A stretch of DNA of 38,483 bases, from the IMG/VR virus record IMGVR_UViG_3300044551_000008, positions 1 to 38,483 of that record. The stretch is one strand, 5' to 3'. Source of the DNA: a virus. The translations under genes and the position numbers were made by a program. Shown here in pieces: positions 5,058-22,682 of the stretch. Within the stretch, counting starts at the first letter, position 1. Each line of letters opens with the position of its first letter. The notes below the pieces were generated by a model that saw only the letters and a program-made list of their open reading frames with translations, was not told the DNA's origin and ran no database searches.

Positions 5058-5471
5058 ATGGAAGCTCCAGTTATTGAATTTAAAAGTTATGAAATAAAAA
5101 AAATAAATTATGTTCTTCTTACAGAAGAGGAAGGTGAAAAAGCCAAAATGAAGTTTTTGGTATCGGGCGCTTTATCTGATGATGCAGAAGCTGGCATAGT
5201 AACATTAGACATAAGTCTTCCGCAAAAAGAACAGAAGAGAAAAATCGACGTTATTCTTTCTGGATACTTTAGATTCAGAGAAGATTTGACATCAAACGAA
5301 GAAAAACATCAATATTTAAGCGTTAATGGGACTGCTATCTTGTTGCCTTACCTTAGAGCGACAGTATCAATGATATCAGTGTTAGATAAAAATGAAGCAA
5401 TAGTTTTTCCAACATTGAATATTGCAGAACTCATGAAAAAGTCTAAAGAAAATGGTGAAGATGAAAATTAG
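5058..5471 (+). CDS. SecB-like chaperone (137 aa)
   Basis: VNGTAILLPYLRATVSMISVL..FPTLNIAELM aligns by eye with the SecB hallmark [35 protein letters not shown]. The tail is acidic, as in SecB. Confidence 0.6.
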   Translation: MEAPVIEFKSYEIKKINYVLLTEEEGEKAKMKFLVSGALSDDAEAGIVTLDISLPQKEQKRKIDVILSGYFRFREDLTSNEEKHQYLSVNGTAILLPYLRATVSMISVLDKNEAIVFPTLNIAELMKKSKENGEDEN

Positions 5472-5477
5472 ATAATT

Positions 5478-5500
5478 CGCCCTCCGGGGCGTTTTTCTTT
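5478..5500 (+). terminator. Intrinsic terminator of the three-gene operon
   Basis: Stem CGCCC/GGGCG with a TCCG loop (5478-5491), then TTTTTCTTT. Confidence 0.8.
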
Positions 5501-5517
5501 GTACTCGTTAGGAAGTT

Positions 5518-5569
5518 TGCTATAATTAAACTTCTAACACTGATCCCCCTTAATTGGGGGTCTTTTTTT
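5518..5569 (+). ncRNA. Mini-cassette 1: promoter + ~37-nt hairpin RNA + terminator (candidate sRNA)
   Basis: TGCTATAAT at 5518-5526. Hairpin at 5542-5562 (CCCCC/GGGGG, loop TTAATT). T7 run at 5563-5569. No ORF. Confidence 0.4.
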
Positions 5570-5603
5570 GTTAACAAATGTTACTTCGTCATTTTATTGA
5601 TGT

Positions 5604-5705
5604 TGTTATAATAATGGAATCATGAATGCTATTCCAATTACAAATACAAATAGCTAAGTGTTTATGAAGAGATAAAGCGCCCTTTTCCAAAGCGAGGGCG
5701 TTTTT
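5604..5705 (+). ncRNA. Mini-cassette 2 (candidate ~85-nt sRNA)
   Basis: TGTTATAAT at 5604-5612. Internal hairpin TGGAAT/ATTCCA at 5615-5636. Terminator CGCCC..GGGCG at 5678-5700 plus T5. Confidence 0.4.
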
Positions 5706-5727
5706 CTTTACAACGGAAACAGTAAAT

Positions 5728-5806
5728 TGTATAATAATTTTATCCTTTTACATAAGGTTATAAATAACTCCGAGAACATCGTTTTGACTAAGTGACGGTG
5801 TTTTTT
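5728..5806 (+). ncRNA. Mini-cassette 3 (candidate ~65-nt sRNA)
   Basis: TTGTATAAT with TATAAT at 5730-5735. Hairpin at 5741-5760. Terminator stem at 5775-5802 plus T6. Confidence 0.4.
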
Positions 5807-5831
5807 ATTTGAAAACGAATACAAAAAGTAG

Positions 5832-5888
5832 TATAATGAATTCATCTTACCTATATAAGATAACGTCTGCCCTTAAACAGGGCTTTTT
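5832..5888 (+). ncRNA. Mini-cassette 4 (candidate ~45-nt sRNA)
   Basis: TATAAT at 5832-5837. Perfect hairpin ATCTTA/TAAGAT at 5844-5861. GCCC/GGGC hairpin at 5869-5883 plus T5. Confidence 0.35.
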
Positions 5889-5933
5889 GTTCTAGTTAAG
5901 GAAGTAGATATATACTATATTTACCCAAAAATA

Positions 5934-5991
5934 TATAATTTTTCATAAAGTTTACTCCGAGCGTCCCTCTCCTAACTGGGGCGATTTTTTT
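5934..5991 (+). ncRNA. Mini-cassette 5 (candidate sRNA; weakest promoter)
   Basis: TATAAT at 5934-5939 without a TG. Terminator at 5962-5983 plus T7. It shares ACTCCGAG before its terminator with cassette 3. Confidence 0.3.
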
Positions 5992-5992
5992 A

Positions 5993-6070
5993 TGCTATAA
6001 TATAGTCGGGATGTTTGTGAGATTTCATCCTATTCCTAGAGTCAAGCCATTCTTCGGAGTGGCTTTTTTT
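5993..6070 (+). ncRNA. Mini-cassette 6 (candidate ~63-nt sRNA)
   Basis: TGCTATAAT at 5993-6001. Hairpin GGATG/CATCC at 6009-6030. Terminator at 6045-6064 with a C(UUCG)G tetraloop plus T7. Confidence 0.4.
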
Positions 6071-6085
6071 ATTTATTAAAAAAGT

Positions 6086-6204
6086 TGTATAATAGTTTTA
6101 GTGGATGAGAAAAACATTCATTTACAAACACTTGATAATCTGCAGTTCCGTCCACATATATCTAATATAATAATCAAGATATGTGCTGCAGATTGTCATA
6201 TTTT
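6086..6204 (+). ncRNA. Mini-cassette 7: promoter + leader containing a long inverted repeat, reading into the tRNA-like element
   Basis: TGTATAAT at 6086-6093. A 12-bp inverted repeat lies at 6134-6145/6186-6197. There is no strong terminator before 6205. Confidence 0.35.
6134..6197. repeat. Inverted repeat GATAATCTGCAG ... CTGCAGATTGTC with inner CACATAT/ATATGTG arms
   Basis: 12 bp pair (one G-T) around a 40-nt interior that has a second 7-bp stem. The loop contains TATAAT (6166-6171). Confidence 0.75.
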
Positions 6205-6265
6205 GGTTCTTTAGCTCAGTTGGTAGCTAACCGTTCGGTCGCTGGTTCGAGTCCAGCAAGAACCA
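6205..6265 (+). ncRNA. tRNA-like element (61 nt) with perfect acceptor stem and T-arm, partial D-arm, and no anticodon arm
   Basis: GGTTCTT/AAGAACC forms a 7-bp acceptor stem. TAGCTCAGTTGGTAG is a D-arm consensus. GCTGG-TTCGAGT-CCAGC is a T-arm. Only about 11 nt (ACC-GUUC-GGU mini-hairpin) stand where 22-23 nt would be expected. Confidence 0.7.
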
Positions 6266-6278
6266 TAAATAAAATGTA

Positions 6279-6312
6279 TATAATAGTAGAAACTCCTTAA
6301 AAGGAGTTTTTT
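6279..6312 (+). terminator. Mini-cassette 8 / terminator hairpin abutting attP
   Basis: TATAAT at 6279-6284, then stem AACTCCTT/AAGGAGTT at 6291-6308 plus a T run. The resulting transcript would be little more than the hairpin. Confidence 0.5.
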
Positions 6313-6351
6313 AGTTACCTTAATTGAAATAAACGAAATAAAAACTCGCAA
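6296..6351. other. attP: attP of the TP901-1 serine integrase (core TCAATTAAGGTAA on the - strand at 6315-6327)
   Basis: AAAGGAGTTTTTTAGTTACCTTAATTGAAATAAACGAAATAAAAACTCGC matches my recollection of the minimal TP901-1 attP. It lies immediately 3' of int. Confidence 0.8.
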
Positions 6352-8586: not shown

Positions 8587-9480
8587 TTATAAATCAATTT
8601 CTACTTTGACAGCTTGCCCAATTACAGCTGCTGGATTGTCTTGTGTAGCAAATTGGTCTTTAAATTCTTTGTTGATTGACACAAGTCTCAAGCAATCTAT
8701 TTCGTGATAAACTTTTTTTAATGTTGCCTGACAATCATCTTGGAAAAGAACAGCTCCAATAGTACCGTCAGTCACATCAGGAACAGCTTCAATTAATACA
8801 TAAGATCCAAACGGAATCTTTGGCTCCATGCTATGACCATCAACCATTAACCAATAATAATCACGGGCAGATGATAAGAAGTGCGCAGGTACTGGTCTTG
8901 TACCGTCGAAGTTTTCTACTGCATCAAGAGGAAGTCCGGCCGCTATCCTACCAAGAATAGGAACATCTATCATGTCTTCATCAGGTTCATATTCCATAGT
9001 ATTTGCAGGCATAACGAAATTCTCTAATATCTTTCTACTTATATATGGTGGTAAATCATCAGGTATTTTATTAATTGGAATCACTTTAGATTCTTTTTTC
9101 TTTTCCTGTTTTTGCTCATCTAATTGATTGGTTGCAGTGTTTAAAACAACTTTTTGTCGTGGCTCTTCAAGCTGTTTCATTGTATCGATGGTTTTTTCTA
9201 TAATAGGAAATTCTTTTTCATTTAACCATTCATCACTAAACCTTGGATCGATATCAGATTTTAAAATCCCGAAGAAACTAGCAATTTTTTCGACATTACC
9301 AGGATTAACTAATGTTTTTCCGCTAGTGTAATCACTAATAGTACTTTGAGCTATTCCAGTTCCTCGTTGCAAATCTGCAGGTTTCTTGTTAAATTTATTT
9401 AAATATTTTTTTATATTACCTGCAATAATAGGCTTTAATGCTTCTTCTCTTGGCGTTAATTTTGATCTTCCCATTTCCAT
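8587..9480 (-). CDS. Phage repressor, N-terminal XRE HTH + C-terminal S24 (LexA-like) autopeptidase
   Basis: QSTISDYTSGKTLVNPGNVEKIA fits an HTH. GHSMEP (Ser) and TLKKV (Lys) fit the S24 dyad. The gene is divergent from the lytic promoter. Confidence 0.88.
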   Translation of the reverse strand: MEMGRSKLTPREEALKPIIAGNIKKYLNKFNKKPADLQRGTGIAQSTISDYTSGKTLVNPGNVEKIASFFGILKSDIDPRFSDEWLNEKEFPIIEKTIDTMKQLEEPRQKVVLNTATNQLDEQKQEKKKESKVIPINKIPDDLPPYISRKILENFVMPANTMEYEPDEDMIDVPILGRIAAGLPLDAVENFDGTRPVPAHFLSSARDYYWLMVDGHSMEPKIPFGSYVLIEAVPDVTDGTIGAVLFQDDCQATLKKVYHEIDCLRLVSINKEFKDQFATQDNPAAVIGQAVKVEIDL

Positions 9481-12225: not shown

Positions 12226-12454
12226 TATTTCTCCAGGCAGCTACGCCAGTTAAGGTGGCAACAAATAAACTATCGTTACTGTCTGCGACAGTTTTTAAGT
12301 TATTCCTAATATCCGTTGCACTAGTATTAGATTTAACGACCCACACAGATTCGTTAACATGCGCCCATTTAGGATAATTTTTAATTTTATCAATGAGGTC
12401 ATCATAGTTCTTGCTCGAGTTTTTTAAATCGTATGTAATGATATAACTTTCCAT
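12188..12454 (-). CDS. 88-aa protein, reverse-oriented in the early region; possible Cas2/VapD-like ferredoxin fold
   Basis: The ATG at 12454 lies 5 nt after AAGGAG. MESYIITYDL..W.HVNESVWVV..D.LFVATL follows the beta-alpha-beta-beta pattern of Cas2/VapD (MYxIxxDL ... SVF). It has its own TTGACT-17-TACAAT promoter. Confidence 0.55.
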   Translation of the reverse strand: MESYIITYDLKNSSKNYDDLIDKIKNYPKWAHVNESVWVVKSNTSATDIRNNLKTVADSNDSLFVATLTGVAAWRNIIDDSDVLRECL

Positions 12455-13014: not shown

Positions 13015-13128
13015 TATGAGCAAACAACAAAAAAGCCCTGCATGGCACGCAGAGCAAGTAGGAAATTCGCCAAAACTTCTACTTAAATTATACCACGAAT
13101 GCCTAAAAATTTGAAATGGAGAATTGAA

Positions 13129-20248: not shown

Positions 20249-20769
20249 CTAAGTTTGAAGAAGAATTTAACTACTTGATTGAATTATCAGGAAAAGTATT
20301 ACTTGGACAAGTAGATGCTGAAACATTTAAAAAAAACAGAATTGCATTTTTTGAAAAGTATGAAACAGACCAACAGCAAGCCCTGCCAGTCTTGCCTGAA
20401 GATGTTGCTGAGTGGATAGAAATATTAAAAACTAAAGGCCTTAAACCACTAAAAAATCCAGAAACATACGGAGAAACTGGCTTTACAGAAGAAACACTAC
20501 AAAATATTGTATTTTGGATTTCTGAACACCAAGAAGATTATATGCGTGCATGGCTAGACGGCTACACAGTCGAAAAACCGCAGCTGTTCTATTTGAAGGC
20601 TAAAGAGTTGCTAGTAGTCGGTGATTATGATCATGTTGAGGATTTATGGCTTGATTGTAATAAAAATTTTACTCCTAAAAAACAAGATGCTCATAAATTC
20701 ACCCAGCAAGAAATCGACAGCATGCAAACTGGAAGCTATGAGCTTGTGCCTGTGGAGGACGGAGAATGA
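20245..20769 (+). CDS. DUF1642-like phage protein
   Basis: LPVLPEDVAEWIEILK resembles the conserved core I recall for DUF1642 of lactococcal and streptococcal phages. Confidence 0.5.
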   Translation: MTKFEEEFNYLIELSGKVLLGQVDAETFKKNRIAFFEKYETDQQQALPVLPEDVAEWIEILKTKGLKPLKNPETYGETGFTEETLQNIVFWISEHQEDYMRAWLDGYTVEKPQLFYLKAKELLVVGDYDHVEDLWLDCNKNFTPKKQDAHKFTQQEIDSMQTGSYELVPVEDGE

Positions 20770-21458
20770 CAATTACTGAGCAGCAATTCTATGACATGCT
20801 CAATGTTGATGAACATATGAATTTCACAAATCGAATTCAAGAACTTGTTTTTGATAAAAAAGGGCGTGAAGAATTTTACTCTAAAATCTTAAATATCCAC
20901 CATGACATGGGAGTTGATTTCTTTAGGGACTATTTTATGGCTCATTCAGCTGTTTCAGCAAAAGGTCAGCATTATACACCAGATGAACTTGGTAAGCTCA
21001 CAGCGTTGCTTGTAGGTGGTTCTGGAGGTGCTGATTTAACTGGAGCAGGAACAGGAACTCTAATCATTCAAAAATGGCAAGATGACCGAATGAATACAGA
21101 CTTTTTTAACTATTTACCGAGTAACTATTGGTATCAGGCATTAGAATTATCAGATGAAGCTATTTCATTCTTGATTCATGCTTTTGCAATTCGAGGAATG
21201 AATGGTGTAATCATTCATGGTGATGCATTGGAAATGGCCGTGAAACAAGTTTATTTCATTCAAAACAGTGCTAATAATCCGATTGGTTTCTCAGAGATAA
21301 ATGTTATCCCTCACAGCAAAGATGCAATGGAATTTTTAGGGATTCATGAATGGACGGAACAGGCAATTGAACATATTGAAAGTAAATTTCCTGACTGGAT
21401 TCCACTCACAGAAGAAAGGGAAAGTCAAATTAGCCTGTTTGATGAGTTCTCAAAATGA
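20766..21458 (+). CDS. N6-adenine methyltransferase-like protein (SAM-binding region present, catalytic motif IV atypical)
   Basis: GQHYTPDELGKL (motif X-like), DLTGAGTGTL (motif I) and ..IHGDAL are present. NNPIGF stands where (D/N)PP(Y/F) is expected. The product is only 230 aa. Confidence 0.55.
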   Translation: MTITEQQFYDMLNVDEHMNFTNRIQELVFDKKGREEFYSKILNIHHDMGVDFFRDYFMAHSAVSAKGQHYTPDELGKLTALLVGGSGGADLTGAGTGTLIIQKWQDDRMNTDFFNYLPSNYWYQALELSDEAISFLIHAFAIRGMNGVIIHGDALEMAVKQVYFIQNSANNPIGFSEINVIPHSKDAMEFLGIHEWTEQAIEHIESKFPDWIPLTEERESQISLFDEFSK

Positions 21459-21507
21459 CAGACAAACTAATATCGCTGGTCAATGACTAGTGGGGAGGGA
21501 TTGAATG

Positions 21508-21587
21508 AAAAAAAAGCCCAAGCTGACCAAGCTTGAGCGGTTGTTGTAAAAATTATTAGTTACTATTGAATGGTCACATTCATTATA
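21508..21587 (-). ncRNA. - strand mini-cassette A: TATAAT promoter + ~67-nt RNA + terminator
   Basis: - strand TATAAT at 21582-21587. Hairpin at 21516-21538 followed on the - strand by T8 (21508-21515). Confidence 0.45.
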
Positions 21588-21644
21588 CTACTGATTAATT
21601 GATGACTATAAAATTTGATTTATTAAAAAATCTTTAACTATAAC

Positions 21645-21726
21645 AAAAAAAGCCCGAATTGACCAAATTCGAGCTTAATAGAACAAAGTTTTATGGATAA
21701 TTTTTGTGGTCACACGTATTATATCA
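21645..21726 (-). ncRNA. - strand mini-cassette B, a paralogue of A
   Basis: - strand TGATATAAT at 21718-21726. Hairpin at 21652-21674 plus T7. Compared with A it has the same GACCA loop, the same 32-nt spacing to TGGTCACA, and covarying stems. Confidence 0.5.
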
Positions 21727-21770
21727 TACTGAGCTAGGAACTCGCTAAACTCAACTAGGAGAAATAAATA

Positions 21771-21965
21771 ATGAGTAATAAATCATCGAATAGTGGGGGC
21801 ATAGGCTTCTTCGGATTATTGCAAATTGTATTTATTGTACTTAAATTGATAAATGCAATTAATTGGAGTTGGTTCTGGGTTCTGTCGCCAGCTATTTTCG
21901 GGATAGCAATTTTATTAATTTTATTTTTGATACTTTGTTACTTGAAATATCAAGAACTAAAATAG
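21771..21965 (+). CDS. Small membrane protein (64 aa, two TM segments)
   Basis: GIGFFGLLQIVFIVLKLI and FWVLSPAIFGIAILLILFLIL are hydrophobic. RBS AGGAG is present. Confidence 0.6.
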   Translation: MSNKSSNSGGIGFFGLLQIVFIVLKLINAINWSWFWVLSPAIFGIAILLILFLILCYLKYQELK

Positions 21966-21969
21966 ACAG

Positions 21970-22023
21970 AAAAAGCCCACTGCAATGGGCTTCGGCAAGA
22001 AGTTTTCTAACTTAATTATACCA
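21970..22023 (-). ncRNA. - strand mini-cassette C: TGGTATAAT + ~39-nt RNA + terminator
   Basis: - strand extended -10 at 22015-22023. Hairpin GCCCA/TGGGC at 21975-21990 plus T5 on the - strand. Confidence 0.4.
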
Positions 22024-22042
22024 CAAAAGGAGAATTTGATTA

Positions 22043-22465
22043 ATGGCAGATAAGTTAGATAGAATTATTGGAGATTACGTTAATGGCAGACTTGAAGCCA
22101 GAATAAAATCAATTGAAAGTAGATATCTTTATAAGCAAAAAGTAGATAACTTAGGCATCCGCACAGCTTATTCCGGTGGTTCGGAGCCTGAAAGTCATGT
22201 TTTAAATAAAGAAGCGCTTGAAAATGATGAGGAATTAATCAGATTAAGAGAATTGATAAGACAAATCGACATCTGGTATCTACCTTTGATTCAAGTTGAA
22301 AAGGAGGTAATAAGACTAAAATGTGAAGGATATAATGGCAGATACTGGTATCAAGTAATGCAAGAATTGGATGTTCAAGGATTTGAAGTTCCACAGAAGA
22401 AAGCTAAAGCTGCTTATTATAAATTTAGGAATGACATCTATTCTTTTGTTATTCACTTAATTTGA
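22043..22465 (+). CDS. alt: ArpU-family late transcription regulator (Alt-like)
   Basis: The 140-aa product is the last gene before the packaging module, as in TP901-1. The size and position fit Alt/ArpU. Confidence 0.6.
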   Translation: MADKLDRIIGDYVNGRLEARIKSIESRYLYKQKVDNLGIRTAYSGGSEPESHVLNKEALENDEELIRLRELIRQIDIWYLPLIQVEKEVIRLKCEGYNGRYWYQVMQELDVQGFEVPQKKAKAAYYKFRNDIYSFVIHLI

Positions 22466-22607: not shown

Positions 22608-22682
22608 GTGGCTGCATGGTCAAGGGGTTAAGATACTGCACTTTTAGTGCAGAGGCGTGAGTTCGAATCTCACTCAGTCACA
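22608..22682 (+). tRNA. tRNA-Lys(UUU)-like gene with non-canonical junctions
   Basis: 7-bp acceptor stem GTGGCTG/CAGTCAC (one G-T). Anticodon arm CTGCA-CTTTTAG-TGCAG. T-arm GTGAG-TTCGAAT-CTCAC. GG is present in the D-loop. There is one extra nt at the T-stem/acceptor junction and the D-stem is weak. Confidence 0.55.

Follow-up and report, generated by a model that had tools for sequence, protein, structure and literature searches.

Two paralogous intergenic units, A and B, lie upstream of the late transcription activator gene alt in the phage DNA analysed here (IMG/VR record IMGVR_UViG_3300044551_000008, positions 1 to 38,483; this whole 38,483-nt stretch is the window in what follows). Each unit carries, on the minus strand, a promoter motif, an AT-rich body and an intrinsic terminator, and both are located inside the plus-strand early operon, between a methyltransferase-like open reading frame (ORF) and Alt. 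We infer that the units specify small cis-antisense RNAs which, together with their head-on promoters, gate read-through toward alt, the presumed downstream target, and that they double as recombination joints; we assign to this reading a probability of roughly 0.55. By BLAST against phage records, the window belongs with the temperate Lactococcus phages of the P335 group (ul36, TP901-1, r1t, BK5-T and TP712), and it matches TP901-1 in gene order and in its 485-amino-acid (aa) integrase. Judged by its sequence, the window is a TP901-1-like Lactococcus phage of the P335 group.

Architecture and conservation of the units

Read on the plus strand, unit A consists of an A8 run (21508–21515), the hairpin sequence GCCC-AAGCT-GACCA-AGCTT-GAGC (21516–21538), a 32-nt spacer, TGGTCACA (21571–21578), ttc and ATTATA (21582–21587). 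Unit B has the same layout, with A7 (21645–21651), GCCC-GAATT-GACCA-AATTC-GAGC (21652–21674), a 32-nt spacer, TGGTCACA (21707–21714), cgt, ATTATA (21718–21723) and TCA. A check of the sequence recovered every listed element of the original prediction in its place in both units, which stand back to back with no gene between them.

On the minus strand both units read as TATAAT, 6 nt, GACC, an AT-rich body, a 9-bp stem (GCUC.../...GGGC) closed by the loop UGGUC, and a tract of U7–8. Unit B has an extended −10 element, TGATATAAT (21726–21718). The TGn of such an element is not found in unit A, where TATAAT (21587–21582) is preceded by TAG, a degenerate TGn, to give TAGTATAAT instead of TGnTATAAT; its nearest relatives carry TGG. 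The predicted RNA starts are G 21575 in unit A and G 21711 in unit B, because published small RNAs of the same design begin at the seventh nucleotide after TATAAT (see below), and the RNA predicted from each unit is about 66 nt long. The terminators are GCUCAAGCU-UGGUC-AGCUUGGGC (21538–21516) followed by U8 (21515–21508) in unit A, and GCUCGAAUU-UGGUC-AAUUCGGGC (21674–21652) followed by U7 (21651–21645) in unit B. In a terminator scan, the two hairpins and the T runs that follow them come up on the minus strand only, and no U tract follows either hairpin on the plus strand. The terminator hairpin is the sole structure in the predicted folds of both RNAs, the 5′ end being left unpaired (−13.4 kcal/mol for the RNA of unit A).

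The hairpin pattern occurs twice in the window against 0.05 expected, and none of 100 shuffles contained two matches; for TGGTCACA-N3-ATTATA the corresponding values are two against 0.34 expected, with two matches in 3 of 100 shuffles. Both patterns are unlikely to have arisen by chance. The three stem differences between A and B are compensatory, as had been proposed (A–T to G–C, G–C to A–T and C–G to T–A), with the loop unchanged. The spacer, described as exactly 32 nt, is indeed equal in length and unrelated in sequence in A and B, but across the family the body, measured from GACC to the stem, is 34–63 nt long. The idea of TGGTCACA as a shared element has to be narrowed to its GGTC, the only part conserved family-wide.

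The unit recurs in at least 93 phage records, and its pattern is found at no fewer than 119 loci in IMG/VR. A search for the promoter and downstream leader, blind to the hairpin, also returned at least 119 loci; among the matches listed, the hairpin contains GGTCA in 95 of 96 distinct upstream sequences and GGTAA in the remaining one. The family rules for promoter, spacing and body length were derived from 164 distinct copies of related phages, and the stem and pairing statistics from an alignment of 100 distinct units. TGnTATAAT, with TG at −15/−14, is present in 161 of the 164 copies, and 163 copies have exactly 6 nt between TATAAT and GACC. Seen from the plus strand, ATTATA is invariant, whereas the base needed for a plus-strand TATTAT is present in only 92 of the 164 copies (56%). 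This supports the original reading of the units as minus-strand cassettes of promoter, short RNA and terminator, antisense to their plus-strand neighbours. A plus-strand promoter within the unit was considered and rejected: in addition to the 56% figure for the TATTAT register, a −10-like hexamer lies 6 nt before GGTC in 23 of 87 bodies, and neither is a feature of the family.

The terminator helix is 91% paired, and at four of its nine pairs both bases vary (G–C/A–U at three positions, C–G/U–A at one). The compensatory pattern seen in A and B thus extends to homologous units: the covariation score is 0.196 against 0.134 ± 0.006 for shuffles, of which 0 of 500 reached the observed value, and all slid controls were exceeded as well. 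Stem pair 3, a U·G pair in A and B, is U·G in 89 and U–A in 10 of the aligned units, and this U·G would be a C·A mismatch on the plus strand. Of 42 distinct hairpins, 29 are more stable in the minus-strand form than in the complementary one. The combination of an extended −10, a constant spacing to the start, a U tract and a wobble pair in the lower stem argues for an RNA made from the minus strand.

The loop is nearly invariant, (U/C)UGGUCA, and the 5′ GACC is equally fixed. The complementarity between GACC(A) and the loop UGGUC is 5–9 nt long, compared with 3–4 nt in other mini-unit classes; the mean energy of the 5′/loop duplex is −8.0 kcal/mol, whereas shuffled 5′ ends give −2.3 kcal/mol. 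Of 124 RNAs, 97 leave the 5′ end unpaired in the minimum-free-energy fold. A second minus-strand hairpin class has 5′ UUGGUCA and loop UGACCAA, the same complementarity with its polarity swapped. This class, which is not in the window, is found in L009 (reverse strand, approximately 8720–8800) and at 12 other loci, with 5′ UUGGUCAAA and an 8-nt terminator loop, ACUGACCA; it sits between a gene for a 40-aa membrane peptide and the activator-proximal unit described below.

Phages of the group carry between one and five units. TP901-1 and BK5-T each have two copies, plus a third minus-strand unit with another hairpin just before alt, and the 35-nt body of unit B is 100% identical to that of the second TP901-1 unit (TP901-1 12252–12286). 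The corresponding RNA starts predicted in the TP901-1 record are 11871 and 12289, and bIL285/bIL286 of strain IL1403 also have the class. The bodies fall into at least 11 unrelated AT-rich alleles, and each allele occurs next to many different neighbours, upstream as well as downstream. Assortment is independent among body, stem, −10-proximal hexamer and both flanks, and among 50,697 phage records the body sequences match homologous units only. A search of 185,579 species, each represented by a single genome, found the hairpin pattern accompanied by the remainder of the unit in L. cremoris HP and otherwise only in two low-GC contigs (32–36% GC), NZ_JBEOXS010000121.1 (filed as Streptomyces sp.) and NZ_JBEXJN010000165.1 (filed as Lentzea sp.), which are most likely Lactococcus phage contamination in those assemblies. 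The other 48 matches in species genomes have no stem complementarity and come mostly from genomes of much higher GC content; many of them share downstream sequence and look like one unrelated conserved stretch.

Rfam assigns the units to no family at gathering or permissive thresholds, with nothing above threshold in 21400–22100, and its only hits above the gathering threshold in the whole window are two tRNA hits; no tRNA or tmRNA was found at the region of the units. Phage records annotate no RNA at the units, and literature searches returned no description of the repeat family. The GACC/UGGUC family is thus apparently undescribed. The kinds of element already known are short phage antisense RNAs and composite promoter–terminator boundary motifs; in this family the two kinds come together, along with an invariant loop to which a 5′ tetramer is complementary.

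Same-design units and their published transcripts

Units of this design are not confined to the GACC/UGGUC class (Table 1). The activator-proximal unit, with a predicted RNA of about 39 nt, precedes the activator gene in TP901-1, BK5-T and TP712 as well, and its hairpin variants include GCGCAU/GUGCGC. The sequence upstream of its promoter overlaps with the translation start signals of alt (ribosome-binding site and start codon). Its −10 lies 23 nt before the alt start codon, and a bound polymerase would therefore cover both of these signals. The sibling unit higher in the early operon shares the lower stem GCUC.../...GGGC with the main class and differs in the top of the stem and in the loop; the same unit is carried by TP901-1 at 5110–5048.

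Table 1 Features of the window around units A and B and related mini-units
Feature	Position	Strand	Details and basis
Sibling mini-unit higher in early operon	13030–13095	-	TGGTATAAT, ~31-nt body, hairpin GCUCUGCGU-GCC-AUGCAGGGC, U6
230-aa ORF	20766–21458	+	Upstream of unit A; DNA methyltransferase per annotation of related records
Unit A, putative small-RNA gene	21508–21590	-	Sequence, terminator scan, mini-unit scan, fold
AT-rich 57-bp linker between A and B	21588–21644	.	Contains weak minus-strand TGTTATAGT
Unit B, putative small-RNA gene	21645–21726	-	Sequence, terminator scan, mini-unit scan, fold
Conserved leader (CATACTGAGCTAGGAACTCGCTAAACTCAAC..GGAG) and ribosome-binding site of next cassette gene	21727–21770	+	Same leader before ~30 unrelated ORF families
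Cassette gene, 64-aa predicted membrane protein	21771–21965	+	Unit B upstream, activator-proximal unit downstream; ORF list
Activator-proximal mini-unit	21970–22023	-	TGGTATAAT 22023–22015; predicted start 22008; hairpin GCCCAUUGCAGUGGGC; U5 21974–21970
Alt-like late transcription activator, DUF722	22043–22465	+	Pfam E = 2e-58

Transcripts of such units are on record in strain MG1363, for which 193 small RNAs have been listed with coordinates (PMC13109727, Table T1). One of them, sLLM786-, is a 56-nt minus-strand RNA (785928 to 785873) classed as "antisense" and present in all 7 libraries at 42–104 counts per million (PMC13109727). Gene coordinates in MG1363 and in the TP712 record differ by a constant 778,852, and with this offset sLLM786- maps to TP712 7076 to 7021. 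Its first base follows TGATATAAT-CTAGAT directly, and it ends in a U tract at the stop codon of orf13. It is the product of a minus-strand unit within the plus-strand early operon of prophage t712, analogous to the unit at 13030–13095 of the window, and its ends are exactly those predicted. Three further RNAs from the lysin–att end of the prophage, sLLM820+, sLLM821.6+ and sLLM821.7+, start at the seventh nucleotide after TATAAT and end in U tracts, so that all four obey the start rule applied above to units A and B. sLLM820+ has been verified by Northern blotting and is very abundant (PMC13109727). The MG1363 prophages have been credited in all with 28 small RNAs and 19 antisense RNAs (PMC4829306).

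Likewise borne out is the proposed likeness of units A and B to an array near attP, where positions 5996–6071 of the window and sLLM821.7+, flanks included, agree at 100% over 76 nt. The array (5471–6350), located between the lysin gene and the integrase/attP side, consists of about eight plus-strand mini-units, each with TATAAT, 30–90 nt and a terminator. The terminator of the unit preceding 5996–6071 matches sLLM821.6+ at 97% over 33 nt. A tRNA-like sequence at 6205–6265 (Rfam tRNA, 37.8 bits; not called by ARAGORN) lies inside a longer mini-unit that starts at a TATAAT near 6088.

The MG1363 prophage RNAs thus resemble the predicted products of units A and B in genus, phage group, TGnTATAAT promoter, seventh-nucleotide start, length (56–66 nt) and U-tract end. 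However, their sequences and hairpins are different ones, and none belongs to the GACC/UGGUC class. Units of this design are expressed in a lysogen and, by analogy, the GACC/UGGUC class is probably expressed as well. A further MG1363 RNA, the 75-nt, Northern-confirmed as-ps118, adjoins the primase and primase–polymerase genes of prophage MG-1 and not a P335 early operon, and was not used.

Position and accessory cassettes

The placement of the units before the late activator, noted originally in this one phage, is conserved: at 105 of 138 loci, 223–1855 bp (median 435 bp) separate the last of them from the activator-proximal unit downstream. In related loci the plus-strand order is unit, conserved leader with ribosome-binding site, and one of about 30 unrelated families of small ORFs. 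Many of the cassette products are membrane peptides of 31–84 aa, single- or double-pass, and others are soluble (DUF1359, DUF6275). PADLOC returned no match for any cassette protein, and DUF1359 and DUF6275 are the only Pfam families found; for the 64-aa ORF next to unit B, Pfam gave a sub-threshold match only and PADLOC none. Body, stems and flanks show mosaic assortment among related loci, and the near-identical units with their shared leader are probably homologous joints for the exchange of accessory cassettes between phages, as far as the sequences can tell.

The leader downstream of unit B also serves as the upstream region of the minus-strand promoter of that unit. Its plus-strand fold showed nothing notable, such as a structure hiding the ribosome-binding site. 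In those related phages that were sampled, A-type units are followed by linkers like the one between A and B. Orphan small ORF families are concentrated at a hot spot ahead of the late activator, and the annotation of TP901-1 ties two neighbouring ORFs to the abiN operon. ALT of TP901-1 carries the label "experimental" in its record annotation. A tRNA-Lys (UUU) gene (22608–22682) is located just 3′ of the activator gene.

Upstream of unit A, positions 21456–21507 contain ATGACAGACAAACTAATATCGCTGGTCAATGA, annotated as a repeat_region in BK5-T, followed by GGGGAGGGATTGAATG, the start of ORF57 in BK5-T. In the window, this element joins unit A directly through a shared GGATTGAA microhomology, a junction found in the window only and which, from its sequence, looks like a deletion joint. 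A 14-codon plus-strand mini-ORF (21506–21550), left by the presumed deletion, spans the hairpin of unit A.

Proposed function and alternatives

We hypothesize that the units set a threshold for late gene expression. An extended −10 of the form TGnTATAAT would act as a promoter independent of a −35 element, with transcription starting at the G of GACC, and host RNA polymerase would transcribe the units constitutively, in the lysogen and right after infection. The resulting RNAs of 60–90 nt would be perfectly complementary to the intergenic parts of early transcripts that read toward alt. The RNA duplexes might then be cut or destabilized, as is the case for lambda OOP on cII mRNA, and the head-on promoters would obstruct plus-strand polymerases. 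Duplexes and obstruction together would form a threshold or timer, by which Alt, and hence the late genes, would stay off until early transcription is strong. Pairing between the 5′ GACC and the loop GGUC may protect the 5′ end or present a recognition loop. The body would be free to vary because it is always complementary to the opposite strand.

The closest precedent is lambda OOP, a short RNA of about 70 nt with its own constitutive promoter opposite the early operon and an intrinsic terminator; P22 sar and P1/P7 c4 are looser parallels. RNAs of this class are complementary to the 3′ end or an intergenic part of a transcript leading to a key regulator. The units share with OOP a predicted promoter opposite the early operon (TGnTATAAT, in the 161 of 164 copies given above) and a GC-rich 9-bp stem followed by U7–8 on the minus strand only, and any transcript reading through toward alt would contain intergenic stretches to which their predicted RNAs are antisense. 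However, the units differ from OOP in being present as several paralogous copies per genome, in lying in intergenic DNA only, and in having a hypervariable body with an invariant loop and 5′ tetramer, and no sequence or Rfam relationship links the two.

Several observations weigh against the gating proposal. The predicted RNAs span intergenic DNA only and overlap no ribosome-binding site or coding region; therefore, any effect would require RNA cleavage or polymerase collision. Virulent P335 phages (ul36, 4268 and P335) retain the units, and a purely lysogenic role is therefore unlikely. Prophage t712 of MG1363 has no unit of the GACC/UGGUC class, and the activator-proximal unit that it does have, identical to 21970–22023, is nevertheless outside the published list of 193, possibly because its RNA is so short. 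Unit A lacks the TG of the extended −10. Upper-stem C·A mismatches on the minus strand, which are G·U on the plus strand, are common, so the evidence on the strand is not unanimous. Finally, the original prediction that the 5′ end can pair with the terminator loop stands in part: the complementarity is conserved and energetically favourable, but no pair of the 5′/loop helix is changed on both sides in the aligned units, the fifth pair fails in 12 of 100 sequences, and the flanks of GACC do not covary with those of the loop. The pairing of 5′ GACC with loop GGUC is, on these data, plausible.

The joint function may also be the primary one, and this is the alternative that we take most seriously, although we consider it doubtful as a full account: the units would be recombination linkers, composite promoter–terminator boundary motifs whose transcripts are a by-product or serve as insulation. 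This would accord with the roughly 30 unrelated ORF families that they flank, with the independent assortment of their parts, and with the fusion of unit A to another repeated boundary element through the GGATTGAA microhomology. It also has a model in the promoter-early stem-loops (PeSLs) of T4-type phages, composite terminator/promoter motifs tied to flanking genes (PMC2839356, PMC4122927), which mediate modular shuffling. Like PeSLs, the units are small motifs of promoter and stem-loop that recur at the boundaries between variable orphan ORFs, in a hyperplastic region, and they would be joints for such shuffling. However, their signals are antisense, and the promoter precedes the terminator, which would yield a free-standing small RNA in a different phage group and host; with this orientation, PeSL-style terminator/promoter service to the flanking genes is impossible. 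Nor would homology alone preserve TGnTATAAT, the 6-nt spacing, the U tract and the compensatory stems. The linker function is compatible with gating and does not exclude it.

The constancy of the loop and 5′ tetramer beside varying stems and bodies raises an alternative that we regard as unlikely: the RNAs may act in trans or as a protein-binding scaffold, through a pseudoknot, a factor-recognized loop or pairing with the intergenic regions of superinfecting relatives. The class of swapped polarity, which keeps the complementarity, the discrete unrelated alleles of the body, and the expression of same-design units in a lysogen whose flanking genes are silent would fit such a role. Against it, GACC/GGUC pairing shows no covariation, the bodies match only homologous units in the phage collection, and complementary sites of at least 12 nt elsewhere in the window number none for unit A and, for unit B, a single 12-nt site that pairs with the hairpin and not with the body. 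A specific form of this idea, allele-specific control of superinfection by RNA, seems to us quite improbable. In it, a resident prophage would constitutively make several antisense RNAs built on an unchanging scaffold (5′ GACC, loop UGGUCA and terminator), the hypervariable bodies would match intergenic joints of related incoming phages, and the early transcripts of these phages would be cut before Alt, which would block their late genes. If true, frequency-dependent selection would explain the many unrelated body alleles and their reshuffling.

Type I toxin–antitoxin systems are common in prophages of Gram-positive bacteria, and many cassettes here encode membrane peptides of 31–84 aa, including the 64-aa ORF downstream of unit B, so antitoxin-like RNAs controlling the small hydrophobic peptides of neighbouring cassettes were also considered. 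In Enterococcus par (Fst) RNA II and other type I antitoxins, which are common near small membrane peptides in mobile elements, the terminator loop and 5′ sequences are proposed interaction sites. However, the units share no overlap or terminator with a toxin mRNA, their RNAs overlapping neither the ORF nor its ribosome-binding site or 5′ leader; many neighbours are not hydrophobic, a good number of the cassette proteins being soluble (DUF1359, DUF6275); and some units, like A and B, adjoin each other without an intervening gene. We hold this explanation to be very unlikely. About as unlikely is an element that works on the plus strand or as DNA, namely an early-mRNA hairpin with a GACCA pentaloop, similar to a nut boxB, or inverted TGACCA/TGGTCA protein sites. 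An invariant loop on a covarying stem is typical of protein-recognized hairpins, the upper-stem mismatches become G·U on the plus strand, and the window contains 35 copies of TGGTCA/TGACCA, where dinucleotide shuffles give 15.4 ± 3.9. Yet stem pair 3 would be C·A on the plus strand in most copies, the conserved U tract and TGnTATAAT have no plus-strand meaning, the distance between the hexamers ranges over 34–63 nt without helical phasing, and most TGGTCA sites outside the units lie in coding DNA, where codon usage may explain the excess. To a guide RNA of CRISPR type we give almost no credence. The layout in the window, an 8-nt 5′ handle, a 32-nt spacer and a 23-nt 3′ hairpin, invites the comparison, as does a sub-threshold Rfam match to CRISPR-DR44 (22 bits against a 35-bit cutoff). 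However, only GACC of the handle is conserved, each unit has a promoter and a terminator of its own, and no cas-like gene is present among the ORFs scanned for families around the units. The spacer idea is contradicted by body lengths of 34–63 nt and by the lack of targets in the window and in phage records.

P335-group phages rank among the main causes of failure in dairy fermentation, and TP901-1 serves as a model of lysogeny switches. The units pinpoint probable joints of accessory-gene exchange, which would help to trace the origin of new virulent variants. Their parts, a minimal promoter with a predicted start, a free body and a strong terminator, could be reused as a scaffold for small-RNA expression in Lactococcus. 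The gating that we propose would provide a function for part of the many prophage small RNAs that transcriptome studies have detected in Lactococcus, and the antisense RNA genes predicted to be stacked before alt are a concrete, mutable candidate for control of the amount and timing of the late activator beyond the CI/MOR switch.

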